A stretch of 61,267 bases of DNA, the filler included, from Platydemus manokwari (lineage: Eukaryota): NCBI GenBank assembly GCA_037951405.1. It is 6 parts of 6 records of this genome, joined end to end, with 100 filler letters (N's around TTAATTAATTAA, not from the genome) between each part and the next. Parts side by side here need not be neighbours in the genome. Positions count along the whole stretch, not along the records: positions 1 to 9,364 come from JBBMOY011259430.1; 5 more parts are not named here. The stretch is one strand, 5' to 3'. Numbering within the stretch: the stretch's first letter is position 1; every line of letters begins with the position of its first letter. The notes under the pieces were generated by a model that was not told the DNA's origin, ran no database searches, and saw only the letters and a list, made by a program, of their open reading frames with translations. A program made the translations under genes and the position numbers. This document shows, piece after piece, positions 1-39,522 of this stretch.

Positions 1-214
1 ATGTAGAATGACTAAACAACAGAGCACAAAGAAAGCTTTAAAATGATATATTATATGAATAATTTTCATAAGATCTTTAATTTAATATTTAAAAATGAAA
101 AGCCAATTTAAAAAAGGCCATTATTTTTGCACCAACCTAATATTCCATCCGCTGTGGGCGGTGGTTGGCAAAATTCATGTGGATATATATGTGTTTTTCC
201 TTTAACTGGTTAGT

Positions 215-2090
215 ATAATGACTGTGGTTGCGTTAACTGTGGTGGCATTCTAGGGTCATATCATCCTGCTTTTAGCAATTCTATATCCTTTTGATGTTTT
301 ACTGATATTAGATACTTTGCTATTGGTGGACAAATGAAGCACATTACTTGCCAAGAATAACCGACTACATCCTTCAAGGTTTTCATCAAAATTGTTGATG
401 AAAAGATCATTTTTATCAAAGCTATAATGTAATTTATTCCCATAGAGAATGAAAAAAAAAAGCTTCCATACAGACTATAAAACATTTCTTTAAAGTGATC
501 CGCCGATAACAAAGCTTCATAATTGAATGATCCATCTATACTTCCTTGCAATACTTTTTCACCATTTTCATTATAACTTTCTCTCGTTGTTTTGGAAATA
601 ACATGTGTTTTCTTGCTTTTTCTATATCTTCCGCTACATATATCCCATTATTGTCCATATCATTTACTGGTTTAAATGCTAAATTTCCTGTTGGTCCATT
701 TGCTTTTAATGTTTTTACATCAGTACGCGGTTTCTTATAATCCGTTCCTATCCATCTCCCATCGTCAGATCGAAATACAGGATCCATTGCATTTGAACAA
801 GAATCTATTGGTGGTGCTTTATAATTGTGTCCTAATATGATTCTCGTAACTGGTTGTAAGAATGTCTTTTGATTATTGTAAATTATCAGCATTTCGTTGG
901 TACAATGCTTATGTTTTCTTACTACAAGATTCGTCACTTTTTTACATTTAGACGTATAGATGACTTCTACTACTCGAGCGAAGGTTCCTTTTTTCTCAAA
1001 TATTATTGGTGCGACAAGTTCTGGGTTTTTTATAGCTAAAGCTAACTTGGTCTTGAAGACTTCCCTATTTAGCTTACAATCATTCAAGATTAACTCCATA
1101 TAAACTTTCCAATTAATCCTTTGGCTAGGTGATAGAAATAGTCTAACTTATTGTTAAAGTACTGTGCCAGTTTCGCATCTAACTTATTTAGTTCTCCCTT
1201 AGTATCTTTTATCTCATTCTCACTTAGATATATTCCTTTATAATTTGTGACTATGACCATTTGAGCACATCTCTTATCATGTCTTTTATGTATGAATCTC
1301 ATTGCACTTTTCCCTTCTTCACTCATGTACAGTGTTGATATTTCTTTCATTCTGATTTCAGATGTTTCTCTTGCTATCAGATAAATAACTTTCCGCAAAT
1401 TTTGTCTCCTTAAATATTTTACCATTTACTGCATGTAATCATTCCTTTTTTAGTCATGTTAATGGACTTATACATGATTAGTGATATTCCATATTCACAA
1501 TTTGTCCATGTTGTCATCTTTTTAGTTTGTGCATCAAATGTTGCTTGGAATTCTCTTAACTCTATGATGTAATGTTTTAGTGCAACTACATTTTCTAATG
1601 TCTTATTCCACACTTGACATTCAGATTCCTTACAATATCCTCCTGTTCTTCTCCAATCTGCAGGTCCTATTTTTTGTCTTGTAATGGCTTTTCCTAATGT
1701 TATTGCATATCCTTATGATGTGTAATATGCCTCTAACTCAAATGTTTGTCTGCATTTTTCCTCTGTTGGTATTTCTGGCATTGTTGCATATACTGGTTTT
1801 AATATTGTTGTGTATGCTCTTGATGATCATGAGCAATGAAATGTCAGCTCTTGATACATTATTTTACACTCTCTGGCTTTTCAAACAGAAATTCGGACTC
1901 ATGATACACATACATTTCCTTAGCTATAGATTTTGTTAAATTTACAGGATATGCCTCTGGCATTTATCTGTATCTAATGAGTGTTTTTGCCCCCATTGTG
2001 GTTTTCCGCAATCATAACCACCTATCCCTGCATCTACTCCTATTAATCCTACTAGATACATTGTTAATAATGTTTGAACTATGGTGTAAA
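215..2090 (-). pseudogene. env: Envelope glycoprotein, chuvirus-G-like (class III fusion protein), frameshifted
   Basis: Signal-peptide-like VQTLLTMYLVGLIGVDA then GYDCGKPQWGQKHSLDTDKC (YDC at 2008-2016). Further motifs: GGYCKESECQVWNKTLENVV; CKLNREV..LALAIKNP..GTFARVVEVIYTSKC..CTNEM..YNNQKTFLQPVTRII..C..PVF..DGRW; GIY..EDIEKARKHMLFP. C-terminal hydrophobic segment. Confidence 0.75.
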
Positions 2091-2157
2091 TTTAGATTTT
2101 TGTTTAGATTGCTGACTTTCTGATTGCTTTTCTTCCTCTTGAACTATAAATTTTCTT

Positions 2158-3566
2158 CTATCTGCTAATTGTTCTAACATTGTTTACTAATTTAGTCCAT
2201 CCAACATTTTGATTTATTTCATTCTCATATTCATTTGCTATTAATTGCGCTCCCTCATCTTTGATCATTATTTGATTGTCTATTAAATTTAAAATTATTT
2301 GTAATGTTGTTATCCTTTTTCCAGGTGTTTTTTCTTTATTCATTATTTTCATAACTTTCTTAACTGTTTCCTTATCTGATATTTTATTGCTTATTCGATT
2401 TATTTCGTCTTTGTATTTATCTGTGCAATGCTCTAATGCTTTTATATGCAATTTCTCATTTTGATCTAAAGCGCTGGCTTCGCCACTAAGTGCTTGTAAA
2501 TATTGTTTGATTTGTTCCTTAACTTCTTCTTTCTGATTAAATTCTCTTATTACCTGTGCATGCATCTCATTTTTATCTAATGCCCAGATTTCGTCACTAA
2601 GTGTTTTATATTTAATTCTCCATTTCGCTTTTTCTTCTATGTCAGAATCTTTAGGTGGTATGTCTTCTTCATTTAAATTTATGGGATCATCGTAATTTGT
2701 GATATTATTCTAGATTTTATTCTTAACGTCTGGTGGCCTTTCTCTAGTTTTTCTCATTGTTGTTTCTTGATCTCTTATTATCTTTCATTTCTTCTTCTGT
2801 TTCAGTCCCTTTTTCTATCTTATCTTCTTCCCTTTTTCATAATTCATTTTTTTCATTCCATTTCCCTAATTTATTTTCTTCTACATTATTTCCTTGAACT
2901 TTTTGTTTTATTATTTCTCCATTGTCATCGTAATTATATGTTATTAATTGATTTATTGGCTCATTTATGGCTTGAAATGCTCTTGATGTTGATGGTATAT
3001 ATTCTTCTCTTATCATATTTCCATAATTATCAAATGGGAATTGTGGTATATAACCATAATTATTTTGTTGTTGATATTCAGGTGGATAAACTGGTTGTTG
3101 CTGTATACGATCCTCTTCATATATTATCTCTTCTTCTATTTTATCTTCTTCCTCATTATTCATTTCTGGTGTTGTTAAGTTTATTTCCTCTCGATATGGG
3201 TAAATTATTTTCTTGATCTCAAAACTATCTCGTTCACTTTTATTGTGACTTTGCAAAACATGGATCATTGTATTGTCCTTGTAAACATTCCATACAATTT
3301 CCTGACTCATCTTGTTTTTTTCTTATCTGCTTATTCACCTTATATGTTTCTGGTGATTCTATCAATTTCATAAAATCTTTTCCTGATGACTCAGTATCTT
3401 CTGCATTCTTAGCGTCCTTCTTCTTTTTCTTCTTCTTTGATGCTTCTCTTTTCTCATCAATGCTTTTGTCATCTCCACTTGCTACTTCATTTATTATTTC
3501 ATCCAGGTCTACTGACCATTGCCTATTAACTTTTCTTTCTTTACTCTTCTTTCTACATTTTTCCAT
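2158..3566 (-). pseudogene. Charged, low-complexity and coiled-coil linker between the Ubl array and env
   Basis: ORFs 3240-3566, 2837-3310 and 2158-2565 are K/E/Q-rich and have no convincing PR/RT/RH/IN motifs. Homologous sequence precedes the second glycoprotein copy. Confidence 0.55.
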
Positions 3567-3599
3567 TTCTATTTTTTTCCCTTATTGTTGATTTTATCA

Positions 3600-5420
3600 C
3601 TTTCCTTTTCTTTTTCCTCACACTTTATCATGTTTATGTCATTATATCCCCAACATACATTGAAGCTTATATACTTCCAGGGTATCGTCTTAGGTACATT
3701 TGGTATTGGTGTTATTATGTTAACTTTCACCACATTTATCTCATCTTCTGAGAATACATTTTTTAGTTCTTCTTCCTCTATTAAGGTTCGTTGTTTATAC
3801 TTCATAATTATTTTATTTAATCCCCATTCTCTCCTATTTATGTATTGTTCTTCTATTTTCCTCTTTAAATGTTTTACTTCCTTCTTTTTCTTTATTAACT
3901 TATAATCCTCTAAATCTTCCTGATAAATATTCAACACTTCTATTTTCACTATGTATTCATCTTCTTCACTTATTAACCCTATCTCTATACTATTCAAACC
4001 TGTTGGCTTTAAACTATGATGCAAAAACTGATAATCATCATCCAATTTTCTTTAGATTTCTTCTTTCTTTCCTTTATGTTCATATTTTAATTCCATTCTA
4101 CTTGGTATGCTTTTCAATCTCACTATGTATTTTTCCTGTGGTATTCCTGTTTGTTTAGATGTCCAATTTTTAAACCACTTAATTAATGCATTTCCACTTA
4201 TTCTGAATTCTTCTATTTCTTTCTTTTCCCTTATATTCACTTTTAATTGATATACAGGTGCTGACAATAACCATATTGGTAATTTAATACTATCCTTATC
4301 ACTAGTAATTCTTTCATCCCATGTTCTCATAACTGTTATTATCCTATTTTCTTATTTGCACTTATTCGATAATATACCATAGATTGTTCGTTATTCATAA
4401 ATATTCCTTTTGTTATTTGTTCTAACGTTATTCCTAATAAAGGTTCTCCTTCTCTCTTTAACTTTCCTACATCCACCTTATATGTCATTTTTCTTATTCC
4501 TTCTCTTTTGAACGGTCAAATTCGATCTATTTCAAATTTTAGATAATCTACCGTTACTGTATCTTTTATTCTTATGATCTTTATTGCTTCATTGCCTGTA
4601 TTATCTATCATTTTAACTTCAATTTCTATTTTGTTCTCTTGTTTAATTTCTTCTGCACAAGTTTTCATATTTATTTCATATTGATCCCATGGTATTGATT
4701 TTGTTGTGTAGTCATGTTTTCCTGTATTGAATTTTATTTCTATTAAGTTTATCTCGTCGTCCTTGAATATGTCTTTTAATTTAACCTTATCCACCATTTG
4801 TTCTTGATTATGATATATGTTTATTTTTACATTCTCCCACTCTGTTTGGTCAAATTAAAGTTCTCGTATTGCTTCTCGTACTTCATTCATTGTTCGATGT
4901 TTAAACATTAACTCATTTTCCCTAATTATATTAGTGTAATAGTTAGGTTCTATTATCATCTTAACTATGTAATATGCATATGGTGCTCCTTTTTCTCCGT
5001 CTTCTTTTATTGATGTGATCACTATTTCATTCTTATAATATTCGTTTAATGGATAATACCAAAATTGAAGTTCTTCATCTAATATTTCCCATTTTCTTAA
5101 CTCTATTTCTCTTTCTAATGTGCAATTTCTTTCCCCCTGTCTATATCTTTCTTTCCTCCATCTTATTATATATTTATCCGGTGGCTTTTCTTGTTGTTTG
5201 CTAACCCATTCTCGAAACTATTGTATTGATGTGATCGCTATATCATTCTTATAATATTGATTTTAAACTTTATTTTCTTTTCACTATCGTGTATCTCTTT
5301 TCCAATTGTTATTTCTAATTCGTAAGCTGGATTTCCTTGCAATTTAACCGGTTCTCTTCTCCATTCACTAACATATTTTCCACTGCTTATTCTTCTTGTT
5401 GCAAAAGTCCATGGCCTCAT
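3600..5420 (-). pseudogene. Tandemly duplicated unit with about five ubiquitin/SUMO-like domains, directly downstream of the capsid
   Basis: The two units align: IQ*FREWVSKQQEKPPDKYIIR / IKWFKNWTSKQTGIPQEKYIVR; LDEELQFWYYPL / LDDDYQFLHHSL; LKDIFKDDEIN..KSIPW / LKNVFSEDEIN..KTIPW. Ubl-like patterns include VKHLKRKIEEQ...KIIMKYKQRTLIEEEELKNVF and TVDYLKFEI. Confidence 0.6.
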
Positions 5421-6400
5421 CATGGCTATAACATTATTCTCTTTATTTTTATCGTCTTTAATTTGAAACTGTGTTAACAGTTTGTTTAATTGTTCCCATG
5501 TTACATTCATGTCAGGGTTTTTTTCATGATCTTTAGTCGCTATGTTATTTTTACTAGTAGTCGGTATCTCTTTTTTATTTTTCTTAAATGTTACTGCACT
5601 TATTAATGGATAATTTCCAGGTATCCCATAATTTATATTATGATTTGTTAAACTATTTGACATGTAAATAATTTCAACTCTTCTAGCTTTTTGAACTAAT
5701 TTCTCAAAATTTTTATATTCTGCTAATGCTATTGGACTTATTAATATGAGTATTATTTCCCTTCTAAATTGATCTATAACCATTTGCTCGCGACCCTCTA
5801 CAGATACATATTTGCCATAAGCCTTAATTACTAATTCTTTTATTGCCATTGAATATTCTCCTACACTTTCACCAGACATTTGGTATCTATCATTAAATTG
5901 CTTTACATAAAATTCATGCACATCATCTCCCACAACTAATTTGCTTTTTAATTCCCTAACTAAATCCTTATAACATTTAATTTCTTTAAAATCTAATCCT
6001 TGTAATGCTTGTAACGCCTATGATTTTAAATACAATGACAATCTTTGAAATTGTTCTGCCTGCGTCAAGCTATATGCTTCAGTTAATCTATTATATTCAT
6101 TGAAGAAATCATCAAACCCTTCCTGTTTTCCATCATATGGGTTAATTGGTATATACACATTTTTGCTATTCATAATTACATCATTCATTTTGTCTAATAG
6201 TGCTTTATATTTTACAATTAATTCACTATCTATTTGGGTGCATATTTCAATTATTTATCCATCAATTTGGGTGCTTATTTCTCTACAATCGATTATTTCA
6301 CTATCAAATTGGGGGCTTATCTCTCTACAATTCACTATTTCACTATCTATATCAATTTGGGTGCTTAGATTTTCTAAATTATTTCCTAATATTATTGTTC
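5238..6400 (-). pseudogene. gag: Gag capsid (retrotransposon gag, Ty3/gypsy-like) with an in-frame stop at 6018-6020
   Basis: Manual translation: PINPYDGKQEGFDDFFNEYNRLTEAYSLTQAEQFQRLSLYLKS*ALQAL...FNDRYQMSGESVGEYSMAIKELV (MHR-like QxxxESVxEY). The N-terminal part has ISTQID-type repeats. No CCHC knuckle seen. Confidence 0.85.
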
Positions 6401-6775
6401 AATTTGAACTACTTTTTTCGGTAAATTACTACTGCTAAATTATGTTGATTCACACTGCTTATCAAACTTCAATTAATATCAAACTACCTAAGTCTATTAA
6501 CGCTTTTCTCAGATATTTAATCAACACTTTTCGTGGAGTAAACTTGAAACTTTTCCTGGAACAATCGATGATATTACGAAACAGACTTATTAAGTTATCT
6601 ATCTTCTTACTAATTAATGTCACTTAGAGCAGGGTGTAGACCTCTCAAATTGTTAAATTTGTTGCGATAAAGTTGAAAACCTTAATCTATTTTTCTTCTT
6701 TTTATATACCGAAGTTACAAATTATGCGTCGCTAAACTAGCTCTCCGGTTCACGCAATAAAAACGCGCTTTAATT

Positions 6776-6915
6776 ATCAAATTTATCAAATGCTCCTTGG
6801 CTCAAATTGACTTTATCTCTAGCTCCTTGGCTCAATTTAACTTTATCAACTTTATCTATAGCTCCTTGGTTTGATTCGAATTTATCAAATTTATCAAATG
6901 CTCCTTGGCTTAATT
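6776..6915 (-). repeat. Short tandem repeats in the retroelement leader (LSQGA-x-DK in ORF 6770-6982)
   Basis: GCTCCTTGG occurs four times with TTATCAAA/CTTTATC spacers. Confidence 0.75.
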
Positions 6916-7014
6916 CAATTTCGTTTATTTTATCTATTCTAATTCTAGTAATTTCTAACTTCACTAATTTACCTATTTGCAACTTTAACTTCTCAATTTT
7001 GAATTCACAATTTC

Positions 7015-7267
7015 AAACTTTTCACTAATCGAGCACCAATTATCTTATTCAAATTTAATGGTTAATTTTAAAACTTTAAACTTAATTTTTACTTCCAAAT
7101 TTATCCTCACCCGTATCACCAATTGTTGTTTAACTTTTAACGATTTTTTACACAAATTTCTCCTCACTCGAACACCAGTTGTTGTTACTTAATTTCTAAT
7201 TTTACACCTTCAACTTTTAATAATTTTTAAACTAAAATTTCTCCTCACTCGGTTACCAATTGATGTT
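7015..7267 (-). repeat. Array of four PBS-like motifs with AT-rich spacers
   Basis: Minus strand: TGGTAACCGAGTGAGGAG (from 7258), TGGTGTTCGAGTGAGGAG (7177), TGGTGATACGGGTGAGGAT (7121), TGGTGCTCGATTAGTGAA (7038). The first three are preceded by AACA(A/T)CA and followed by AAATTT. Confidence 0.7.
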
Positions 7268-8553
7268 TATTATTTATACTTGCAAACTTCTAATGATTTT
7301 TCAAACAAATTGTTATGTTTGGGGCTTGCTAATTTTATTTCTTATCTTATCAGTCTCGTAATTCAATTTATCCTTATTATTGTTGATGATCACTGTTGTC
7401 TTAATCAGTCACACGTGGTTCTGATTAAGCCCTAGGTACGAACTATTGAAACTATTTATTTCTTTCTTCGCCTCGCGTTTATATGATGATAATATCAAAC
7501 GGCAAAAATGATCAATTATTACTACCAAAATTATTCCTATGTCAAGACTATGAATTTTAACAAAACTATCAGTCTCTATTTTAATTCTATCAGTCTCAAA
7601 AACTTTGATATCAATATTATCAATTCTTACTCAAATCAATAACAAACTCGTTGACTACAAAATGTTTATTGACATCAAATTTACACTAAACAATTATATA
7701 AATTACTACGTTTACAATGGTTAAATATACAATTCAAAAATACGAACAACCTTATCAAGCTTCTGGGGAAGATTTACGATTAATAGACTGCATTCTATTG
7801 CAGCAAAACCACCTTTCAAGATATTTGAGACAAAGCTCTATAGTAAAATAATATACACGGCGTATATAGTATTGATCAGTGGTTTACAGAATTAATCTGA
7901 CTTACGTTAACGAGCATATACTTGAACAATGGCTGTGGCAAATATGGATAGGATCGAATACGAGCTTCTACTGGCGACTTCACGTAACAGGAGGTTTTGT
8001 GTAGTTTGTAACGGATTATTCTATGTTACAGGCAGTTCGAATGTTATGACGTTTCCCCCCCTATTTATATGAATCGGGAGACGAATTTCGTCGTCATGGA
8101 TTATTGGTGAAAATGGGTTCAATTAAATTTATTCCCATGAGATTTCCCTTTTATTTTATTAAAATAAACTTGCTCGTTAACTTTGAGATAATGAAATATA
8201 AATAATTTAATATTCTTCTACGTTTAATTCTTAACATTTTCTTGGAAAGGTGCTATAATATTTATCAACCGTAAATAAATTATCATTATCATTTTATGAT
8301 AATAATAATTATTATTATTCTTATTTTTTACCAATTCAATAATCAACCAGAAGCTTGATTTACAAAATAAAATTTAATTAATTATAAAAAAGGTAAAAAT
8401 AAAATACATTGCTTGATTAACCAAGCCATTTATAAAAATTGGTACAATAATAACCGCTTGAATAATCAAGCCTGAAAATTGCTACACTTATTTATAAAAA
8501 TCGATATCAAATGTTGTCAAGCGAAACTATTTGAATGGCAAAAATTTGTTACA
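7261..8553 (-). repeat. Putative 5' LTR (~1.3 kb)
   Basis: Minus strand starts TGTAAC (8553) and ends AACATCA (7261), followed after 2 nt by TGG of a PBS-like site. Internal TATA box. No second LTR is present to confirm the boundaries. Confidence 0.55.
8055..8070 (-). promoter_or_regulatory. TATA box of the putative LTR
   Basis: Minus strand reads ATATAAATAGGGGGGG and points toward gag. Confidence 0.5.
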
Positions 8554-9364
8554 GTTTTTCATATTTGGATTGATTATAGTTTTCATTTTGCCATTTTCCC
8601 AACAATTCAACTTCTACGATAAGGTTGAAATTTTTTTCAAAATCTTGATTCATATGTTTTTACATTAAAAAATGAAACATTTTCATAGAAATCTTTTACT
8701 TACTGTTTGTTGTCTGTATGCTTTGCTTTTGAAATCAAACAAAACCGTTTATTTTTCTGCTCTTCTGTGTTTTTGTAAATGATTTGGAAACATTTGCTTA
8801 TTTTTCAGCTTGATGTATTTTCCTTTGTCGATAAACAAATCTTAAATAAAACTTTCATTATTTTTTAAAGTTATCTTATTTGTTTAGTTCTGTAATTTTT
8901 ACATAATTCTAAAGGATAGCACAAAATAACACATTATCAAATTACCTCTAGTTAGATATGATGGTTGTTTTAAAAAATAAACTAAAAGAAAAGATTTTAA
9001 AATATTTATCAAAGCTTGTCGATAACTTGAATAATTTTTATTTTCCATTTGAAGCCACGGAGGACATATATAGAATAAATAATCAAAATATAAAATTTGA
9101 TCTCGATATAATTGTAATTATTCAGTTGATATAGGAGTGAAAAATGCGTATTTTGTAGGTTGATTTTGACAGTATTAAGAGCTATGACTTAATATTTTGG
9201 GATCATCAGCATAAGCAATAATATGGATTTTCGTATTGGAAACCTAATAGGTTGATGCCTACTAATTACACTTAAACGAGAATTATATATTAGGTGTATT
9301 AGTATGATTCCGGCTTTTTTTTAAAAACAAAAACATTTTTTAAAATATTTATTTAATGAAATTC

Positions 9365-9464
9365 NNNNNNNNNNNNNNNNNNNNNNNNNNNNNNNNNNNN
9401 NNNNNNNNTTAATTAATTAANNNNNNNNNNNNNNNNNNNNNNNNNNNNNNNNNNNNNNNNNNNN
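9365..9464. other. Artificial contig spacer
   Basis: N44-TTAATTAATTAA-N44, which has stops in all frames. Confidence 0.95.
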
Positions 9465-9879
9465 AAATATTAAATAGACTATAGATTAAAAAGCTCCTGA
9501 AATTTGATTATTTGAAAAAATGAAAAAAGTATGTCGAATTACAATTTATTTAAAATTAGTGAAGATCCCTTTTTAACATTAGAAGCGAATTATTTTATAA
9601 AAATAAGTAATTATGCTATTAAATATATCTGTAATTAACTAACTCCATTTATAATTAAAAAGTTTAAATTTAAAAAGTCAAATAATAAAGTGGTTAGAAA
9701 GGGAGCTTGGTTTAAAAATATGTTTTATCCATATTAGACATCTTAAAAATGAGATATTAACTGAATTATACGAATAAATAAAACATAGCAGTTATATATA
9801 AAATTAAGTTATAAAATTATCTCATGTGCGAAAATTCTTTGTACGAAAGTAGGTTAAAGGACCCTTTTTCTTAACTTAA
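9465..9879 (+). mobile_element. MITE family A copy (left end cut by the gap)
   Basis: Core CTCCTGAAATTTGATTATTTGAAAA and right end GGACCCTTTTTCTTAACTTAA are shared with three other copies. Confidence 0.7.
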
Positions 9880-11727
9880 ACCGAAATTTATTTTTATAAA
9901 ATATTCAAAATCAAAACATTTTTAATTTAATTATCTTTTTTTAATTCTTTGAATTTGTTTTTCGTATTTTTTATTTTCCTCACAGTCATAACATGGAAAC
10001 TGATACAAAACAATAATAAAATTTAATTTATGAATTAGATTAAGGAAATGAAAATCACTACAATGATAAATCAAAATTAAAAAATCTAATTGGTAATGCT
10101 GTTTTTTCAGTGATTTTCAAAATACTTTTAAGTCGAAGTGTTTTACCATCTCAACAGCAAAGGTTTCAATAATTTCCACAATTTCCATGTATTTAAATTA
10201 TTTTCTGAATAAATTTGTTATCCATAATTTCAATTCGGAGAAGAATTTTTTTTTTGGTAATTGGCAATTTTGTTGTAGGATGGATTGTATGAATTTTTCG
10301 ATAATCTTTTGTCCAATATTTTCTACACCAAACTATTAATAACCATGTTTTTATAGACATTTTATAAATACTTTAATTTCCATCCATCGATATTTTCAGC
10401 TAAATCAATCTTGATAAGGATTTCGGCATCGAAATAGCAATTGTTAGTAAATAAATTATTTGTGCATAATATGTCTAGAATAATATTGAATGTGTTTGTT
10501 TTTCCTCGTTTGTTCTTGATCTATTTCTGGTCTATTTTGAAAAAAAAGTCCTTCTTATCATCTGCATTTAATATGGATGCAAATTGCTTTCCTTCTCTCT
10601 CTGTAAGATTGAAATCAAACTTTCATTACAAAAACCAAGTGGCAATAATTCTCATTCAATTGTTTCGGGTTAAATCATAACAAGAAATTATCAACAAATA
10701 TCATCAAGAGAAAATCGAACCATAATTAGGCAATTTCATACAAAAAATTGATAAAATCTTATTTTCTTGTTATAATTCAGCTTCTTGATTTTTTCTTTCC
10801 ATTTATTTTTTACTAATTGCCTGGATATGAAAGATTTAAAATAAATGAAACAATCAAATTTAAAACCAGTGATGATAGGAGGGAAATTTTCTTTTTTCAC
10901 GATTGCTATAAAATCTGGATTCCTGTTTCATGGCTAATTATTCATTCATCAGTTTTTATAGTTAAATTAAGAAGTTCATTCGAAATTAAAACGAAATAAG
11001 ATCATTTCAGGTGGTAGACGATATTATTATTCTATTGGTTTTATTAAAATAAATTGCGATTTTGGGGGAAAGTAATTCAAACCAGATTTGCCAAAAATAT
11101 TATTAATATTATAATTATTTTCTTCTGAACACATGCGTTTGAATAATATCTAAAACTGATGAGTAATAGAGAAATTTTTATTTTCCATTAATTTAGTGGA
11201 TTCTGAACATTTTTCATGTTCTTAAGTGGAGTGCATTTTAGATTTAGTTAGTCAGTGATAAGATTGAAAAGTAAATAATTTAGTACCCCAGTTTTGAGAT
11301 TGTAGTATCAAAAATAATTACCGGAAAGTTAAATTAAACTAAACTTCACATATGACAATTTTCCTTATATGCCAAAATATTTTATTAAAACTTTTTAAAA
11401 TTTCTTTTGTAAATTAATTAAAAAATTACATTTAAAATAAAATATATGAAATTTAAATTTTATTATAATAATCGTCTAGACTGTTCAACGAAAATTTCAA
11501 ATAATATATAGAAAGGTAGTGGCTAACATTTCGATTCTGATTAATTATACTTTGATAAAAGGATAAAATTACATAATAGTAAAAAAGAAATTTAAAAATT
11601 TAAAATAATAAAATTTTATCATTAGAATCACATCATAACTTAAGTATAGCTTGTTATCTTAATATACCGGTTATAGGCATTTTGACAAATAAAACTTATT
11701 AATGTTTAATTTAAATAAAAAATCGGC

Positions 11728-12063
11728 TTAAGTTAAAAAAGGGGTTCTTTGACCTACGTTGGTAATAATGATTTTTTGCGCATGAGATAATTTCACTTCT
11801 GAATTTTATTTATAATTGCGATTTTTGATTGATTCGTATAATTGCAATTCGACGTACTTTGATCTGTTTTTCAAATAATCAAATTTCAGGAAATTTTGAG
11901 GCTCTATTGTATGCAATATTTGTTTTCAAATAACTAGAATTCTTCTTTAATATTTAAAAAAATCAAAATGTTTTTAACGAATATAATTAAATAAATCGTA
12001 TAGATTTTTGCAATACTCTCAGCAAATTAAAAATTTTATTTTAGGGCCTTTTTTCTTAACTTT
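11728..12063 (-). mobile_element. MITE family A copy (inverted, internally deleted)
   Basis: TIRs TTAAGTTAAAAAAGGGGTTC ... GGGCCTTTTTTCTTAACTTT, with the reverse-complement core TTTCAAATAATCAAATTTCAGG. Confidence 0.7.
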
Positions 12064-13970
12064 ATCACGAAAATCGAAAATATCGAACATTTTTTTTACA
12101 TTGAAAATTAAAAAGCTATAAGCATTATTTCAAATTTATTCATTATTATTTTCTTCCATATTTGTAAATAAATATTGTATTGATATATATTAATGCCCTT
12201 TTAATAACATAATAAGCTTTAAATTTCAATGTAACGGAACAATTATCAGAGAAATTAATTTTAAAATTCGTAAGTATTATTTTGGCTTGTGTGTATAGAA
12301 ATAAATAAAGGAATTAAAAATGAGCTGAAAAGTACGCATCGAACAACACGAATCAGCTGATTATTAATTTAATTCATATTTTTAATTTAGATTTTACATG
12401 GAAAATGTTATTTCATAACATTTTCATTACCATCAGCTATAAGGATTACATATATGTATTCTATCACTCAAATCAGTCATTATTTTTCGTCCGCAATATA
12501 TGGCATCGTCTATTTTTTGTCATTAGCCATACATTTTTCTGGTATAACTCAGATTGGATAATGACTTTTTATAATTTTATGGTGCTTCACCAACAGGATA
12601 TAAATTCATGTTTTTATTTTTTCTGTTTGATGGTTAACCTATCGAGAGATATAATAATATAATAATATATTTTTAAATAACAAGTAATTTTGATTAAAAA
12701 TTTAAATCATTTTTTAAGGATTTAATAATAATTATTATATTTATAAGAAAAATTAAGAAGAAAAATAAATATAATTAAAAATTGGATTTAAATAATAAAC
12801 TCGTTTCGAAAAACGAGATTTTTGATAGAAATTCGGAAGAAATGCACAAGATTGGATTAATCAAGGATTAGAATAGGAATATATGAGAAAATGTGAAATT
12901 CTCACAAGTATATTATAAACTTCGACAAGACAGATGGAATAACTAGGTAAATGACTTCCATGTATCATGTTCAAAAAATAAATGGTCAACCAATTCAAAT
13001 CGTCAAACCATTTCAAATCGCCAGAGTGTAAATAAACGATGACAATATTTCAAGTTATAATTATTCTTGGAAATTCTTTGTACTATTTTTATTCGGATAT
13101 GTTAGTCACTCTCTTAATATTATGCATATCTTTGAGAGTTTTCAATTTCCATTGTATAAAGCTAATATCAAATAACTAAATTTAACTAACAATTGAGGTG
13201 CAAGAATAACCATGAATGAAAAAGAGCTGAGTGAAAAATATCATCAATAAATAATCGATATAAACATAATTAAATTATTAATTTATATAAAAATTCAATA
13301 AAAAGAAATTAATAAGCTTAAGCACTTTATTTAGGACACAAATTCGATAAAACATAATTCGGTGAACACAGTTAATGAAAGCAGGAATTATAATTGATAA
13401 CTGGTGAACTACTATTAGGATATCATTGTAGCGATATTGTGAATATTTGAATTATACGTCGAAATAGTTATTGAAAATGACATTTCAGTGCAGAAATTTG
13501 AAAAGAAATGTAATAAAAGTAGTAAATGTATTTTTTTTATTATTTATTTGTTTGTTTTAAAACTATTAATGAAACATGTATTTCAGCATTTAAGTAACTA
13601 TTACCTTTTAAAATTAATGCTCTTAAACGGCTATCTTCCATTCAAAGAGTTACATTAAGCAAATGTTTTCAATTTTATGTTGTACGAATTCAACTAATTT
13701 CAAGTAATCATTATGAGACAAATTGATCAAAATTTCTTAAAAAATGGTGCTTGTAATTTGATAAATATTTTTGTTCTGTACATTCAAAGATTGTTGCTAA
13801 AAGCAATTACCTTACACAATCATTTCTTATTATAATAAATTGTCAAAAAACATTATAATTCCATTTGTATTGGCACTGATTGTGAAAGTAATATTTAATT
13901 GATCCAAACTGACATCTAGATATAAAAGAACTCACATAAAAATATTAACACGAAATTAGTGTTGGGTAAA

Positions 13971-14399
13971 TCACAAATCAATGAAAATGGTCACTATAAC
14001 CAAGAAAAAAAATCCTAAAAGTGGTCAATACACACTTACCGCTAACCAATCAGATTCTTTCTACTGTTAATCCATATTTAAAAGCTAAGAATCGATAGAC
14101 AAATGTCTACAAACGGTAGCAAGCTCAAATATCCGCCAATACCACTGGACATACGAAGAAATTTTCAAGTAAATCGATTCGTAAACAAATGCACCAAATA
14201 TAAAAAGAAGTTTCTCGACATCAAGCAGACACATAAAAGAGATTGATTTCCATGAATATCTGCCACTTTCTTTTTTGGTCGATAACTTGAATATTGAGCT
14301 CATCTTTGTGTGATTTTTAGTAATCAGTCTTTTAGATTACTTTCAATTCTGTTTTTGACTTTCGGTCACTGATCTCGTCTTGAGTGATTTACTTTGTGA
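13971..14399 (+). mobile_element. Interspersed repeat family B (MITE-like)
   Basis: Colinear with 18253-18701 (ACCGCTAACCAATCAGATTC, GTTAATCCATATTTA, ACATCAAGCAGAC). Ends TCACAAA..TTTGTGA. Confidence 0.65.
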
Positions 14400-15367
14400 A
14401 TAGTGAAAAGATTTACTGTAAGTATTAAGATTCTCATTGTGATATTTTGGTTAATACAGTTTTCAGATCTAAATTGTTGATTGATAATACAACATTAACA
14501 ATATACACGAGAACACAATTAATATTTTTCTCAAAAACATAGTAGTGATTCGAATGAACTTGCCCAACTAGCTAGTTTATTGGAATCAAACAATAATATT
14601 GAGTGAGATGAAATTCTGCAAAAGAAAAACGTATTTGCACCTTAGAACCCCTATTTAATCTTTAAACATTGGCATCCCTACCCAACCACACATGCATAAC
14701 AGCTAGTCAATAATTACGGAGTTGAATGTTAAACGACAATTGGAAAAAAAGAACATGGCCACACTACAACACATACATAGATATTGACCAATCCTACTCA
14801 TCCTTAAACTAACAAGCCGGATAGGAACATGGAAAAGCAAAGATCGAATCAAAACATGATGAAACATGTCACAAAAATTACACACAGATTTCGAGTATAA
14901 ACATCGATGTAAAGATGGTCAGTGCCCAATTGGAAGTCAGGTTTTGTTATATTCTTCAGTTGAGTGTGATTATGAATTTTATAAGTCGGACTGAGTACGC
15001 AATTGAAAATAAAGTAAAGGCCTTCTAGTTTTTGGAGTAAGCGATTTGTCAATTATTGAGAAGTATCCCAACAATATACAAAAACCATATTTCGAAAACA
15101 AAAATTAATAAATAATAATAAATTGAATTAATAAATTTTTTTATTTATCAATGGATTACTTTCACGTGATAAATATTAGTTTTTAATAAAATATTACATC
15201 GATGAAGTGTACCGATATGTGTGTGTACAAAATGATATTCAAAGAGTGACTAAAGTGTGCAAAATTCAATTTCTACACAATACATTTCATTGAAACTAGT
15301 GTATTTGAGAAGTAGTAAAGTATAGTTAAGAAGATTGTACTTTACCAGTCTAGGACACACGTAATAG

Positions 15368-15472
15368 CAGAGGTGGCCAACTTTTGTGTACTTAAGATCG
15401 ACTTTACATTTGAATAGCGTCTCACACGACCGACTAAAACTGGCTTCAAGATCGACCGGTTGGCCACTCTTG
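15368..15472 (-). mobile_element. hAT MITE (~105 bp)
   Basis: TIRs CAGAGGTGGCCAAC / GTTGGCCACTCTTG. Reverse complement of the copy at 54163-54269. Confidence 0.8.
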
Positions 15473-18252
15473 ATATATAGTATCCAATTTTATTACGGAA
15501 ATTTACTTAAACAATTAAAAGGAATTTCTGAGTTCCGAGATCAGCGCAATTATTAAGTCTAACTCCTCGATTGACAACTATTTGATCATAGAGTTTGTAG
15601 TCTATTAAACATTTTAAAGAGTTACTGTATTTAAGAAATTTGTGTAAACAGAATAGTTTTGTTATCACTCTTAGAGTAAACCTGAAATAGTATTGAGATG
15701 CACAAGCTGAGTTTGAGTAATTTCAAACTTAAAATTTTTTCTGAAAATATTACAAAAAGATATGCCAGTAAAAGGATAATGATTTTTATATATTTAATAC
15801 CAGGGCATAATTTAATATCTCATTAAATAGTGGAATGCTAATCCAAGTAGTAATCAATTTCGTTAATCATGATGAGAAATAGAATGATGTTAATAGCTGA
15901 TATATCTATAATGCTTTATGACGAACAATGTTTTTATTATTTCCCTTAGGATTGTTTTATATATTTATAAATATATTATTAATATCATTGTACCAATTCT
16001 ACTTGTATAATGTACTCGCAATTTGCTGAAACCAAATAAAATTTTGAAACTCAGGGAAATAAAATTATTGCAAAAATTAATTTTTATTTATAAAATAAAA
16101 CGAAAACAAACTTTGGAAATTGAATTTGCTTCGAGTTGGTAAATATTTAAACAAAGATGAATAGAAGTTTCAGTTGCCACTGCAGAAAATTGTGTAGATA
16201 TTGTTATTCATTAAATTTTTCAGAATAATTGATGGATAAATCTCTACTTAATGTCAATATTTGCATGAGGAGATTTTCTCATGTTAGGTCTGATAAAAAA
16301 TTATATAATCAAAAATTTATGACATAATAAATAAGAATTTGTGATGAAAATATTTTCCAAATATCTTTCACTACCAATTTAGCCTTAAAATTATTTATGA
16401 CTCTAGAGAAATTCTTGACATTCACATTGAATATTTTCATTGAACCTCTCAATATCATTTTATATCATGTCATTTATATGATTTTCAAATAATTTGTCCT
16501 ATTATAATTTATCATTTTAATAAGAACCTAATATGAACTATTAAATTTGATAATCTTTATCATTTTATTTCATTTCAAATATATTAATTTGTGTTTATGC
16601 CATATCATAACATTTTACTTCATTTATATAAGAGATACTTCACAAATTACGTTAGATTGTGGGTAATTTATTTCGTTTAATATCCATAAAAACTTATTTT
16701 CTTACTTTTTACTTATATCATTTCAACTGATTTAATTATATTTATTCTGCTGAATTATTTGAAAAATGAAGATAAAAACAGGGTGACAGTTCTAGCAATT
16801 ATAAAATGATGACAAAATTATGTATAGTTCTAGATTAATTTAAAATACGTTAATGTTTGCCCGTGATTTTAAATTTTTTATCAGTTTTAATAATTTTTTT
16901 AGCTTTTAGTTAACATACTTAATATCACAGATGAGACTGATATACAATCATGATAGATATTCAGTCAAATAGTAAATTAATAGACTCTAAATGAATTTTA
17001 TGTCCATGTCCGCTTTTGTCCAACTTATTAAATAACAGATCTTAACCGATACTGCTAACTAGAAAAGACTATGGAACCCATCTGTCAGTAGACTTTATAT
17101 TAAAGTTCATACCGGTTTAATCAACTATATCTTTAATCGCTTACACTTTTATCCATTTAATATTCTAAGAAAATCTAATAATAGATACTGTTTTTATAAA
17201 GATGTTCTTTTTATTTTATTATCAAAAAATAAATATTTGAATTTCTGGGAAATATATTGAAGCTTTCGAAACAGAGAAACGAAATCGCTGCAACTGATAT
17301 TAAACGTGGCTTATACACAATGTCTAGACGGTGAAGAATCTAAATATTCAACCAATTTCAAGATGAACGAAATTAATATGTTCAAATAAATTAATCAAGA
17401 TATATAATTTTGAAATAGAATTGCAAATTCATATCACGAAGAATCTAAAATCAAAAAGGCAAATCATCAGATTTTTATTCACAAATTTATTTACAGCTGA
17501 AGAGAGAAAATAATAAATAATATTAAAAGTATTAAACAAAAGTCTTAAGATATTATTTTCAATAAATCAAGACTTAGATTGAAATATCCTATTAATAGAA
17601 AATGATATTAACCATATTGAATTATGCTAAGAATAATATTTAGTAGTTAAATTGACCCTCAATAATATGTATAATTATACTTTTGAACTTTTTAGGGGGA
17701 TAACAACTAATTATCTGAACACATTACAAATATCGAATTGCCAGTCTTATTTTATTGATAAAACCAAATATTGGATTGTTAAGTTGTGTATTAATAAAAT
17801 TCCAAGCAACTATCTTAACCTGATGATAACATTGTAATGATTGATTCAACAATATAGCAATGGACAATATAATTCACGATTTTGTTTCACAATTTTCATT
17901 TTTATTTCATGTATAACGTATGATTAGTTTTGTATTTTTTCAAAAATCCATGTATGAAATAATTATTAATTTTGTTTTTTTCTATATAAGAATCAAGGAA
18001 TGAGCTAATGATAATTAGATAATTATTAAATTTAAATTAATTAAGAAAAAAGAAAAAAAATATTAATTAATGACAAAACAAAAATCTTTCAAAACTCAAA
18101 CAAATCTATTTATGTAAGTAACACCTACGTGTTGAATAGATAAAATAACATTTTTATAATCGCCAAACCGTTTTGTTTTATATAATTCTTCAAATATTAC
18201 CAAAAATATTTTTAATTAATATGCATAGTTCATAAATTTGTGCTGGGTTATA

Positions 18253-18701
18253 TCAGAAATCAATCAAAAAGGTCACTATAAACACGAAAAAACACTAAAT
18301 AGGGTCAGTTCACACAGAACCGATAAACACACTCACCGCTAACCAATCAGATTCGTTCTAATGTTAATCCATATTTAGAAACTAAGAATCGATAAACACC
18401 TACAAACAGAAACAAGCTCAAGTATCCACCAATGGCACGAAAAATATTATGAAAATCTCAAGTAAATCGATCAATAAACAAATTCAGCGAATTGAAAACG
18501 AAGATCCGTGACATCAAGCAGACTCACTAGATAGGTTATTATAAAAGAGGTTGAGTTCCATGGAGTCCTGCTAGACTTTTTTGGTCGGTAACTTCAGTGC
18601 TTAGCTTTTGTCTGATTTTAAGTAATCAGTCTTTTTGATTACTTTGCATTCTATGTTTGACTTTCGGGCTCTGATCCTATCTTGATTGATTTTCTTTGTG
18701 A
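18253..18701 (+). mobile_element. Interspersed repeat family B copy
   Basis: Direct repeat of 13971-14399 with inverted ends AAATCAATCAA / TTGATTGATTT. Confidence 0.65.
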
Positions 18702-19706
18702 ATTGCGTTGAGATGATTTAATAAAATATCTTTCCTTCAACTCGATTGAAATGGCTGTTTACTAAGAAGTTTAACAGGTGAGTGATTTTGTGACTGACAA
18801 ACTTTATTATTATTATCATTTTACAATTGCCTTAGTCATTATGACACTTAATATTTCAATTATTCTGAATCCATGTGAGGTAAATTTTTATTGACGTTAT
18901 AATTAACTGCATATCAACTGCTATTTTGAAGATTATGGTCTTTTCATATCTAAAAATTAGCTCAAACTTGGTCACACCTAATTTATTTTACAGGGGGCTT
19001 GTCCGATAACTAAGTTGTCATACCTTTTATTGTTCTTTTGAGGTATTTTACGTCCTCAACAGTCATTATTTATCTACTGATTATTTAAAATTTAATCTAA
19101 ATAAATCAAATATATTTTATAGGCTTGTCTCGATTGTCATTGATGGTAATATAATTAGTATTTATATTTTAAAAATTAATTCATTGTATTGTCCCGGGAT
19201 TATTTAGCAGCAACAACCTTTATTCGTTAAAGTCCAGATAAAGAACTTCTGAATCTAAAAAAACAATCTTTGAAAATAAACTTAAGTTATTTGTCATTAA
19301 TACAAGATAATTCTGAAACTCCCAACAATTAATTTTTAAATGATAATTTCTTAAGTGTCAAAAATTAGTGTATAGAACTAGCAATTATGTTTAAAACTTA
19401 TTCCATGTATACCATTTCATTTAAACCAATATTGTTTTATTAAGTCAATTCATTTTTAATTATTTCATTTAAAAAATCATCAACTATGATTCCAAAATAT
19501 TTGTTAAAAAAAATGTATAATTTTTATTTTAAGCAAAACTCACAGCTGTACAAATTATATTTGAAAATGAATTCCAGTCATCATAAATATCTCACTTATG
19601 CAGCTATTGATATTTGTGATATTGCGTAATTTTTACATTTTATTTCTGTAAATACTATTATTCACTTGTAAAATTCAATATCTGAAAAATATTACATATC
19701 TAATAG

Positions 19707-20224: not shown

Positions 20225-20324
20225 NNNNNNNNNNNNNNNNNNNNNNNNNNNNNNNNNNNNNNNNNNNNTTAATTAATTAANNNNNNNNNNNNNNNNNNNN
20301 NNNNNNNNNNNNNNNNNNNNNNNN
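20225..20324. other. Artificial contig spacer
   Basis: Same 100-bp linker. Confidence 0.95.
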
Positions 20325-35429: not shown

Positions 35430-36300
35430 TTCTTTATAATGGAAATAGAAGTCCGGGAAATTGAGTGAGAATGGGAATAAAGTAAATTAAAGAAAAAGAT
35501 CGCATCCAGTAAATATATGCATTCCAACAAACTAATATTGAAACCAAAGATAAGCATGTCTACTCGAAAATCTAGTGGACGGCCATTAGGATCAGCAAAT
35601 GCAGTGAAAAGGATGATAGAAAAAGCCAATCCGTACGGATATATGATCAGAGAACGCTTATAATAACATCCGCGGCACAAATAAAGCAAAAAATCAGGAT
35701 ACAAATAAACCAACCGTGATCAAACGACCAAAATGTCTCAATGGCATTAAGAAAAAACAAGATGATAATATAAAAAATTCGACAATATTTAAAGGCAATA
35801 AATTATTTATTGTGTACACATAAGTGCAATGAGTGGCACAAGGTGAATAGATTATGAGAACTGATAAATTCAATCAAAAATACATTAAAGGAAATACAAT
35901 ATTGTGGCAATAAAGAAAAATTGAAAACTGTGGTACAATCAGTAAATTAATAAGAAACGACAGTTGGAAGAGTTGCGATTACGTTAAGTACGATGCCTAA
36001 AAATGTAGATAAGGTAATAATAAGTATTTATGAGAAGCAGAAATAATGTATGACAAATATAACAGGTGATAAATGAATTAGGGAATTGACTCCTAGAGTT
36101 ACTGCATATGAGTAAGAATGCCAGTACAATCAGAACAAGGACCCATGACATGATTAGCAAACATTATTCACCATATACGTAATACGTGCTATAGAAGGAG
36201 TAGAGACAGGAATTAGTGAATATGATTGCAACATACCACGGCGGTGAAAGAAATATTCGTTATTGGGCATAGATGGATGCTCAGAACACTATCCGGTATA
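35430..36300 (+). pseudogene. Second retroelement copy: linker and glycoprotein N-terminus
   Basis: QTLFTIYVIRAIEGVETGISEYDCNIPRR*KKYSLLGIDGCSEHYPV matches copy 1 QTLLTMYLVGLIGVDAGIGGYDCGKPQWGQKHSLDTDKC/PEAYPV. Upstream YGYMIRE, KIRQYLKA and NKEKLKTVV..TVGRVAITL match the copy 1 linker. Confidence 0.7.
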
Positions 36301-36949
36301 TGGACAATTCTGTTATTTATTTATGCTTATTTTGATGTTCTTTATTTCGCAATTTGTATTGACGGTATTTGACAATTGAGAAGACATTTGCTGTCAGTGT
36401 TAGAAGTCAAAAAAATGGTTATACGCAATAATGAAATAAATAATAATATAATGTCACAAAATATATTAACAATAATCATACCAAAATAAATTATTAACCT
36501 AAAATTATAATAATCTAGAATTGAAAATTAATATGACCATTTGTATAAGATATAGAATAATAAAACCAATAATTCCAATCAGCAAATGTTAAATTCCAAA
36601 TAAAATCATATCAAATCGCATGTCAATATGTCAAAAACCTTCTATTGGAGTCGTGTGGGAGTTGACAAAAGTGTTTTAAATCTTGAGCCACATTAGGAGT
36701 GACCATCAGAATAAAAACAAGAGAGTAAATCTTAAGAAGAAAGAAATCTCAAGAATTAATAAAGGACTTTATTCGAATTACTTACGACAAGGTAAAATTT
36801 TCAACTGTGAGCAGAAAAAATCAAGTAGTGTATTTTTAAATTGCTGTCATGTGATTTTTGTAATAAATTTTTAAATTTCTTGTCATTGCATTATTATTTA
36901 AATAATAATTTGATAACTTTAATGCCGTATAATTGAAGAATCTTTCCAA

Positions 36950-38560
36950 TGAAGACCTTTGTTTCTATCATTCAAGACCAAGGGCATGTCCGCCCTCAAC
37001 ATCAAAGGATAAAGTGGGCCCTTTTTGATCATAACGAACCTACTATCGATGAAACCCGTCTCACATCAGCCAGATATAATGCCAAATATAATAATGCCGA
37101 ACATTTTCGGGGCTCTCGCAACCAACACAAATATATTATCGACCTTGAAATTTGAGCACCGCACATTCTCTGTCAAACTAATCACCGTTATTTCAAAACC
37201 TGCTGAAGATAAATTGTTCAATAGATGACTCCACTGAAGCAATCGGACCTAATGTCAAAATATCAAATCCAGATACTCAATATCTGTGTAATTCAGCCAT
37301 AAAGCTCAAAATTTGTCCAAATCTAACCAACTTCTGACTACTTAGCAACTATCTGGATATCCTATCTTTTTCCTTCAAAGGCTGTCAACAATATGCGAAG
37401 ACAATTGATCACTTCTTATCTCCCAATCAAGCAGATGTCAAGCAGTCCAAATATATCAAAAAATAACTAAAAACAGGCAAACACCGCACACTAAACGAGC
37501 TCCTCTCACTCCTGAGCTGGTGATGGAATCAACGCATGAACAAGGACATCAATGTTTTCCAGCCTCCTCATCCTTTCCCCCAGAAGTCCAAGAACACTTT
37601 CAACAATTCCATTATCTAAATACACCTTCTAAATTTACTTTTCAATGCTACTGTTGATTCATTAGAGCAGTGGTCCCCTCGAAGCTACATTTGTATCAGC
37701 ATAATATTGAAATCCTGCAAATCAATCAGACTCTTCTTCAATCTTCAAACCACATGTACTAGAAGTCTATTTTTTCACGGAAATGTCCAATTTCAAACCA
37801 GGTAAACATTCAAATTTTCACATTGTCTCATCATGAAGGCCAAAGCTCTCAAGGATACATCATAAGGAATCTTTGTAACTATCCTTAAACTTTGGTTTCT
37901 TAACTGAAACTAGGAAGGCAATCTTCTCTCTCCAAATCAAAAAGCAATGCTTACCTTTGACCGATGCGCCGAACACAATAACTATTTATTAACTCTATTA
38001 GAATATATCACTGAATATCACAAAAATATACACCTCTGCTGGATTGACTTGAAAGAAGAATTTAAATTTTACCATATCATGTCATATGGTACGCATTTGT
38101 CAAAATTGAATGTAACTCTCACTAAATATAAATGGTCAAAGTTCTGTACCAGGATCCAAAATCAACCTACTCTTACGGCCAACTTAAGACACCACTAATT
38201 CCTATCTTTTGCGATGTCAAGCAAAAGATGTCGTTAATCGACTTTCTCATCAGATCATCTCTAATACTTCCAGAGCCATTGACCAACAATTGACACGAAT
38301 TCTCAACTCCAGCCTAAGCCGATGGCATAGTCATCTTAGGAAATTCCGGCCAAAACCTCGAACTTAGACTGAATCATTTCATTAAAGATGCGAGAGACAT
38401 TCATCGATGTGCTTAAGTGTGTGTACAATACAAAAGTTAGAATTTTTGATCAAGCAGTGTTGACTGTTGACAACACCAACTTCAACAAAAACTTGGAAGT
38501 AACATTCAGTCTTCCAAAGCGAGCACTACAATCCATCATAACGAATTTTGAAGTAGTGGA
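36950..38560 (+). mobile_element. Degenerate non-LTR retrotransposon (R2/NeSL-like RT fragment)
   Basis: FDRCAEHNNYLL...KNIHLCWIDLKEEF resembles GCxEH...WxDLxxAF of RLE-clade RTs, and a VKQ remnant lies near 38215. C/A-rich composition. Boundaries approximate. Confidence 0.6.
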
Positions 38561-38579
38561 CACATAGTGAGTAAGGTAA

Positions 38580-39310
38580 TGGAACACGTGGTACTGAAGA
38601 GCAATTAATAATGTACAAGACTAATTCTTACAAATGCCCATTAATGTTACTGAAAAAAGCAAAATTTAGAGAAATTAAAGTGACATTGTTCAAGGAAATT
38701 AATTTTTTAAAGAATTAAATATAGGCACGCCAACAGACACAGTAGAAATAAAAATGAAAGAAACACCAGTACTATATATGGCTAATAAAACCAGTATTGT
38801 AATGGGATTTTGCCTTAAGGAGTTGATAAGAAGTGTGCACAACAATGGATAGTCACAAATTACAAGGGGATGTCTCTAGGTGAATATGAAATGAAAATGT
38901 AAAAACAGAGCTGAGCAAGTAGGGGTTAAGTTATCCCAGTATTTCGACAACAAAATTGATTATTTTTATCACCTTAATTAGATATATTTGAAGAAAATGT
39001 ACATGGGAATGCTGTTTAACAAATCTAAGACAAGGCGCGAAGTTTTACAAGCAAATATTGTTTTATCAGTAACAAATTAGGAACTGATAGTTCCATTGAT
39101 ATTTGATGATAAAGAAACGTTCGAAAGAGTAGTAGGAGATATTACTTTCATATTTCAATGCAGAATGGTGAACAATTTACTAACTAGGAAATATGACTAC
39201 TATGTAAATGAAATGAATATAATATACAACAATAGACAGCTATTCTTATAACCAGAAACAAGAATTGTATTGAGAGAAAATTGCAAAGCAGTAAAAAGAG
39301 GCTTATATTC
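38580..39310 (+). pseudogene. env: Second retroelement copy: central part of the chuvirus-like glycoprotein
   Basis: DKKCAQQWIVTNYKG..LSQYFDNKIDYFYHL..ELIVPLIFDDKETFERVVG..NEMNIIYNNRQLFL*PETRIVL aligns with ORFs 1090-1425 and 536-1099. Confidence 0.85.
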
Positions 39311-39522
39311 AAACAAGCTAAATCTCATAAAGATATCTTAAGAAATCACTGGAAAATAATAACCAATCGGAAGCCATAGATAAGATACATCTATTATTAA
39401 CATTCGCTATTAGTTGGAACGTCGCGAGTATTTTCCAGTCCGGAGAAAATCAAACAATAAATCAGTCAAGCGTAAAATGAACTCTCCTGGCTACATAAAC
39501 AAAAATAATTTTTAAATCTTAA

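Follow-up and report, generated by a model that had tools for sequence, protein, structure and literature searches.

Organization of the locus

The window (the whole stretch of DNA analyzed in this study, 61,267 nucleotides with filler, from Platydemus manokwari) carries near its beginning 8.2 kb of a visible element, in which a putative LTR, primer-binding-site (PBS)-like repeats, a gag frame, a long decayed coding region, and a broken env gene follow one another on the minus strand up to the end of a mariner transposon (Table 1). The distance from the start of gag to the end of env is about 6 kb. A previous reading made from the sequence alone had placed a chuvirus-like glycoprotein gene at 215-2090; these coordinates are essentially right, and the strand, which had not been stated, is minus.

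Table 1. Positions of the features assigned in the window
Feature	Position	Strand	Basis
mariner (Hsmar1-type) terminal repeat plus TA	125..142	minus	16/16 match at 125-140, single match in the window
Broken env gene of the gB/chuvirus-like class III fusogens (PF24664)	250..2097	minus	Pfam, tblastn with intact relatives, piecewise alignments, cysteines, motifs
Transmembrane-like segment	405..461	minus	Kyte-Doolittle 1.71; PF24664 positions 550-607
Largest open ectodomain piece	536..1108	minus	77/177 identical to P0002 465-646
Motif FP..R	598-584	minus	Motif scan
Motif GIY..D.E	646-620	minus	Motif scan
Motif FLxPxTRI	862-839	minus	Motif scan
Motif EVIY..KC	967-944	minus	Motif scan
Motif C..R..LA..NP	1078-1022	minus	Motif scan
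Motif GxC..NVV	1640-1584	minus	Motif scan
Motif YDC..SL..C	2016-1960	minus	Motif scan
Signal-peptide/anchor-like hydrophobic stretch, directly ahead of the YDC motif	2041..2097	minus	Kyte-Doolittle 1.84 over 19 residues
Open frame of 183 codons, predicted all-helical, directly ahead of env	2158..2709	minus	Position only
Decayed coding sequence, about 800 codons, between gag and the pre-env frame	2837..5217	minus	Run of minus-strand frames
gag frame, interrupted by one stop; 5613-6155 is capsid-like	5238..6254	minus	Pfam PNMA, tblastn
Tandem array of three PBS-like units that all start with TGGT	7105..7258	minus	Sequence
Putative 5' LTR, TG...CA, about 1.1 kb	7261..8364	minus	Sequence; repeat-depth drop
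Second, more decayed env relic, two pieces	36160..39330	plus	DNA identity, tblastn, HMM, motif

The bounds of the LTR are putative because a second LTR is lacking from the window; nothing resembling an LTR lies past env. The PBS-like units start at 7258, which is 2 nt past the LTR-terminal CA, and at 7177 and 7121; they are spaced by 56 to 81 nt and have a common GTGAGG core with different sequence between. A fourth, looser unit starting with TGG is found near 7040, and short tandem arrays of 30- to 48-nt units (6214-6367 and 6774-6937) occupy parts of the leader between the PBS and gag. No tRNA genes were found in the window.

The minus strand also encodes a Ty3/gypsy-type capsid, 3.5 kb upstream of env. 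In tblastn, the capsid-like part of the gag frame matches gags from two polyproteins that also bear env, P0007 (E = 9e-11) and P0064 (E = 3e-8), in agreement with the gypsy-type capsid that the sequence-only reading had placed beside the glycoprotein, and its match to the Pfam family PNMA (E = 4.2e-5, 23.5 bits) is below the cut-off of 25. The search of the gag frame against PDB sequences gave no match.

The element belongs to a diverse multicopy family. Contigs of one public run (X1) were aligned on positions 1-9000 at a threshold of at least 85%, which gave 5,750 contigs, 972 of them at ≥99%, 1,517 at 95-99%, 2,200 at 90-95%, and 1,061 below 90%. The summed depth, which does not equal copy number, is 1,501 to 19,474 in all 27 bins of 301-8400 (9,310 at 8101-8400) and 229 and 3.2 in the flanking bins of 8401-8700 and 8701-9000, respectively; i.e., the element is about 1,000-fold above the flank, and the edge in depth fits the putative LTR end. 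The bin at 1-300, which bears the mariner end, has a depth of 261,046. Just outside the putative LTR, a small inverted repeat at 8400-8471 (16-nt arms, 29 nt apart), possibly a MITE, has an intermediate depth in the same run. Two contigs that join 142 to 8299 were treated as a chance joint, the short side being 21 AT-rich letters.

A second env relic, more decayed than the first, consists of an N-terminal piece at 36160-36295, with the YDC motif at 36221, and a body at about 38590-39330. It is 65% identical to the first env at the DNA level over 568 nt and is matched by the HMM at E = 8e-21. The approximately 2 kb between the two pieces (about 36900-38350) resembles a non-LTR retroelement remnant by eye, and one frame of it was negative in Pfam. 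The flatworm origin of the DNA, which had been called probable, is supported by a neighboring wnt gene, whose product shares 73% identity with Wnt11-2 of Schmidtea mediterranea and 62% with a Wnt of Dendrocoelum lacteum (2 of 742 candidates matched). Host genes observed in the window are this wnt11-2-like gene (57243-58050), a gene for an LRR/acidic protein (30854-32646), presumably ANP32-like, and a voltage-gated cation channel gene (41800-50800), which we take to be sodium-channel-like. Dispersed repeats with 70-90% identity, probably nonautonomous transposons, comprise one family (9446-9943, 11773-12054, 27529-28162, and 50945-51495) and two pairs (14030-14412 with 18327-18714 and 15364-15504 with 54131-54273). 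Five regular pairs of 44-N runs, 12 bases apart (9365-9464, 20225-20324, 29320-29419, 40818-40917, and 51575-51674), are probably marks of scaffolding or masking.

The decayed env gene

The open piece of env at 536-1147 matches PF24664 (Monjiviricetes_fusion) with 100.4 bits (E = 8.4e-29), and a score above the gathering cut-off of 27 bits was taken as membership in this family. Further matches to the same family are given by the frame of the N-terminal half (48.9 bits, E = 3.4e-13) and by the C-terminal piece (27.0 bits, E = 1.4e-6). All seven motifs named in the sequence-only reading were found in order on the minus strand, from 2016 down to 584 and in three different frames. Of the 14 cysteines of the intact relative P0002 that are conserved in the family, 12 are aligned to Cys in the window env pieces, in keeping with the family's cysteine framework. 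FP..R is short and has chance occurrences elsewhere in the window too, and repeat occurrences of YDC..SL..C and FLxPxTRI are confined to the plus-strand env relic. Six single-frame pieces of env were aligned separately with three intact relatives. In all 18 cases the score was higher than that of any of 200 shuffles, with a narrow margin in two (43 versus 41 and 66 versus 60).

The hydrophobic stretch at the N terminus aligns with the corresponding segment of P0002 and, judging from its sequence, may serve as a signal peptide or anchor. With domain names taken from the secondary structure of the P0002 model, the largest open piece would comprise the end of the long central helix, a β-rich crown-like part, and the C-terminal arm.

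Frame changes, about five in all, lie near 1960, 1880, 1430-1370, 1120, and 555, and the gene also contains no fewer than three stops, two within 1877-1470 and one near 260; the copy is dead, and its reading frames indicate that no working protein would be produced. Intact errantiviruses are defined by uninterrupted ORFs in PMC13524379, whereas stops and frame changes run throughout this element, which is a relic of the GAG-ENV-POL errantivirus kind and not an intact member. A word-indexed homolog search with the env piece gave no match, which is weak evidence; the viral-contig search gave 20 pattern matches, none of which was confirmed, and no match was found in phage records.

Fold of the env family

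The fold was assessed on P0002, an intact relative with 41% identity over the open piece, and not on the broken window gene; the structural model of P0002 and the family profile were built from an alignment of 93 relatives. The AlphaFold model (mean pLDDT = 82.7) takes a gB-like multidomain fold with a long central helix. Against the PDB, the family profile finds herpesvirus gB (best E = 3.4e-4), and the 39 matches at E ≤ 1 consist of 33 to gB at E ≤ 0.017, 5 weaker ones to gB, and 1 to an unrelated protein. The Foldseek comparison proposed in the sequence-only reading was run on the P0002 model, and every PDB match listed is gB (best E = 3.4e-13); VIA-align of the model with gB gives a Z-score of 11.8 and an rmsd of 8.4 over 420 aligned residues. 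In a Foldseek-type comparison with predicted viral structures, the best match is the G protein of Tacheng tick virus 4 (E = 7e-44, 22% identity), followed by other chu-like and xinmo-like G proteins.

These matches to gB and to chu-/xinmo-like G proteins, together with PF24664, make "chuvirus-like class III" a correct description of the family, as had been claimed. By analogy, proteins of this family may form trimers and fuse membranes. That the gene could be an F-type (class I) env or a nonfusogenic host gene has a negligible probability: no point in its favor was found, F proteins are absent both from the 39 profile matches, 38 of which are gB, and from the Foldseek PDB matches listed, and the gene is frameshifted and multicopy. 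The best matches were thus neither F-type envs nor host proteins, the outcome named beforehand as contradicting the sequence-only reading.

Relatives of env and phylogeny

The open env piece was searched with phmmer in a set of 1.84 billion representatives; 323 matches had E ≤ 0.001, and the best 150 of them were used. The best 11 of the 323 are 36-44% identical to the window piece; in eight, an aspartic protease follows env, three of these extending to RT-RNase H and two to integrase, and the remaining three are P0002, with a weak Bcl-2-like piece ahead of env, P0010, with env only, and P0009, a 246-amino-acid fragment. A gypsy-type pol (PR-RT-RH-IN) is located downstream of env in P0003, P0008, P0042, and P0064, and two to four tandem aspartic-protease-like domains, unusual for gypsy pol, follow env in P0001, P0003-P0006, and P0015. 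P0007 and P0064 each match both the window gag and the window env, in the same order (tblastn). Among the best 150 of the 323 matches, the stand-alone proteins (590 to 800 amino acids without a protease motif after env, a class that lumps viruses, EVEs, and separate env ORFs) are at most 34% identical to the window piece, except for P0002.

A quick tree of 89 rows included 88 of the 150 matches, short or low-scoring fragments such as P0033 having been dropped; in this tree, P0002 was labeled as stand-alone by its length and P0096 as a retroelement by its motif. The careful tree of 38 rows contained 12 retroelement rows (P0002 added, P0096 removed) and 25 of the 69 stand-alone rows. A phylogeny with retroelement envs had been proposed in the sequence-only reading. 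In the careful tree, which is unrooted and has about 187 columns, 10 of the 12 retroelement polyprotein envs fall in one group with the window piece (support = 94/84), and the grouping in the quick tree is similar. Against this, an arrangement in which the window piece and all 25 sampled stand-alone proteins form one group was not rejected by the AU test (p = 0.121). Judging from these sequences, the trees point to kinship with retroelement envs and indicate no donor.

These trees bear on a rival explanation, a lone endogenized chuvirus glycoprotein gene (EVE) lying beside a gypsy element or recently captured by one. The chu-like G proteins are the best predicted viral structures, the AU test would allow it, and arthropod Jingchuvirales EVEs flanked by gypsy fragments are described in PMC10084718. 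However, the retroelement envs are closer to the window piece than the stand-alone proteins other than P0002, the repeat depth is unbroken across gag, spacer, and env, and single polyproteins match gag and env together; we consider this explanation improbable. Among the frames scanned around env, Pfam found no L (RdRP) or N genes of the Jingchuvirales.

The missing pol

The relatives' pol contains RT_RNaseH_2 and Integrase_H2C2, which we take to be gypsy markers, and no BEL-type family occurs among the matches listed. These features, the match of the window gag to PNMA and gypsy-type gags, and the position of env directly behind the gag region in the window element speak against an Anakin-type BEL/Pao element with a chuvirus-like glycoprotein, which is highly improbable here even though the same glycoprotein family is reported in mosquito BEL/Pao elements (PMC13524379).

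With 10 long relatives as queries, no match to protease or RT was found anywhere in the window. The sequence at 1-142 is the end of a mariner whose repeat letters at 125-140 are identical to the Hsmar1 end given in PMC5714172; this mariner is a secondary insertion that severs the element about 110 nt beyond the env tail, just short of the point at which the protease starts in the relatives. Truncation by the mariner end and the window edge explains the absence of pol, and by analogy with the relatives a PR-RT-RH-IN pol would lie beyond both. The same lack of protease and RT matches would fit a nonautonomous gag-accessory-env derivative that never had pol and was mobilized in trans by an autonomous relative, and several relatives are known only as far as the protease region. 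Against this, the mariner end stands immediately ahead of the expected protease start, and env is followed by no LTR-like sequence; we regard it as unlikely, and favor the truncated element.

The region between gag and env

The interval between gag and env (5217-2158) holds about 1,000 codons of decayed coding sequence. Its larger part, at 2837..5217, has a strong A-rich strand bias (A = 0.48), and its frames have no Pfam match that reaches the cut-off. MATH, BIR, ankyrin, ubiquitin/SUMO-like, and CCHC domains had no Pfam match in the decayed frames scanned, and a three-sequence HMM was negative. A ubiquitin-like reading of 4339-4650 was made by eye only, and neither the HMM nor Pfam supported it.

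The pre-env frame occupies the site of the Bcl-2-like domain in Burro and in three relatives, and it aligns in register, by eye, with the Bcl-2-like segments of the relatives (possible Bcl-2-like part, 2158-2430). A Bcl-2 identity of this frame was nevertheless not supported by BLASTP against P0002, the ESM Atlas, or an HMM of our own. Its best phmmer matches in the PDB are unrelated proteins (best E = 0.017), hhalign gave a probability of 0.4% (E = 0.16), and its AlphaFold model (pLDDT = 45.8) gave a best Z-score of 6.0 in a wide fold search, with no Bcl-2 among the 50 matches listed. A word-indexed homolog search also gave no match, itself weak evidence.

On the side of the relatives, a W..GGW segment ahead of env was found in 3 of the 11 long relatives, and a profile of these three segments matches Bcl-xL (E = 1.6e-3); since the segments were chosen by the W..GGW motif, this result leans toward Bcl-2. 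The Pfam Bcl-2 family matches P0002 (E = 9.6e-4) and P0005 (E = 0.2) below the cut-off and does not match P0033, whose segment found no named match in the ESM Atlas. A literature search for anti-apoptotic Bcl-2 in env-bearing gypsy LTR retrotransposons gave no match.

Nature of the element

With good confidence, we interpret the stretch as a dead copy represented by its 5' two-thirds, one of many in a Ty3/gypsy (Metaviridae-type) family of LTR retroelements from a triclad flatworm, with a gB/chuvirus-like class III env and, at the same level of confidence, the noncanonical order LTR, PBS, gag, accessory region, env, and (pol). The class III fusion mechanism is established for gB, as is the life cycle for gypsy elements. 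Following these models, intact members would produce gag, the accessory region, env, and pol as one long polyprotein, from which env would be freed by signal peptidase and the element's own protease and would sit in the membrane as an anchored trimer. Class III fusion would then join enveloped particles to another cell, where reverse transcription and integration would follow, and this fusion could allow the family to move from cell to cell in the manner of Drosophila errantiviruses.

The sequence-only reading had also suggested that pairing the glycoprotein with a gypsy-type capsid would bear on the direction of glycoprotein exchange between RNA viruses and retroelements. The pairing does not inform this direction: the tree has no root, the stand-alone grouping was not rejected by the AU test, and the env is nearer to retroelement envs than to stand-alone proteins. 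Which side first held the class III fusogen is a matter for a rooted env/pol phylogeny and not for the window. One could speculate, and we give this only a small chance, that the envs of ancient GAG-ENV-POL retroelements gave rise to the chu-/xinmo-type G proteins of negative-strand RNA viruses, with the triclad family as a long-branch reservoir lineage whose cargo of ~1,000 codons might include a degenerate anti-apoptotic module of the Bcl-2 type and whose PBS would be triplicated. Such descent from retroelement to virus is the reverse of the usual capture story, and the tree at hand is unrooted and limited to 187 columns. The element serves better as a pointer to what seems to be a large family in its host, one in which env forms a long branch and the cargo amounts to about 1,000 codons.

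Comparison with known systems

The env family shares the class III fold of the P0002 model with herpesvirus gB at 10-13% identity. While gB requires the partners gH/gL (PMC13524379), none is evident in the window. With the G proteins of the Jingchuvirales and Xinmoviridae type, such as that of Tacheng tick virus 4, it shares PF24664, the cysteine pattern, and the predicted fold, but the identity between P0002 and the best nine viral models is 17-22%, and the window gene is located in a retroelement rather than in an N-G-L genome. The Anakin BEL/Pao elements and the arthropod Jingchuvirales EVEs (PMC7642597 and PMC10084718) are likewise retroelement-associated chuvirus-like glycoproteins, but they belong to another retroelement superfamily and another host phylum. 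Dezordi et al. (2023) saw the arthropod glycoprotein EVEs as endogenized from viruses, and found no clear capture of them by gypsy elements (PMC10084718).

Burro/GYPSM1, the giant gypsy-like planarian elements described by Arkhipova and Yushenova (2019; PMC6431247, citing Jurka 2007 and Grohme 2018), have an internal region of up to 25 kb and a total length of over 30 kb, and their env, which matches mononegavirus glycoproteins, lies in frame between gag and the protease, behind BCL2. They share with the window element an accessory region between gag and env, and a Bcl-2-like segment precedes env in three relatives of the window env. In contrast to Burro, the window element spans only about 6 kb from gag start to env end, and MATH, BIR, ankyrin, CCHC, and ubiquitin-like domains have no match in its frames.

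The nearest described class is that of Chary and Hayashi (eLife 2026; PMC13524379), whose paper reports that the errantiviruses of Platyhelminthes, Nematoda, and Bryozoa have only gB-type ENV, which resembles Chuviridae envelopes, in the order GAG-ENV-POL, and argues for an ancient association of env and pol; a global class III tree was not inferred there because the sequences are too divergent. The nine flatworm elements catalogued in that paper include six from S. mediterranea (Smed_errantivirus_1-6), with which the window element shares a triclad host, a gag upstream of a gB-type env, and multicopy occurrence (1-215 copies there). The env motifs are also shared: in an ungapped comparison of 1646-1497 by eye, 21 of 50 residues are identical to Smed_errantivirus_3 and 17 of 50 to Smed_errantivirus_1. 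On the other hand, the window host is another triclad, probably not listed there, given the 73% identity of wnt to that of S. mediterranea; the window copy is broken and without visible pol, whereas the listed ones are intact; and it has PBS-like repeats, while the tRNA type of the Smed elements is given as "none." Since the same layout has already been published for planarians (PMC6431247 and PMC13524379), the pairing of glycoprotein and capsid is not surprising, and the element is real but ordinary; as a dead copy it changes little beyond contributing another triclad lineage to a class that was catalogued in 2019 and 2026.
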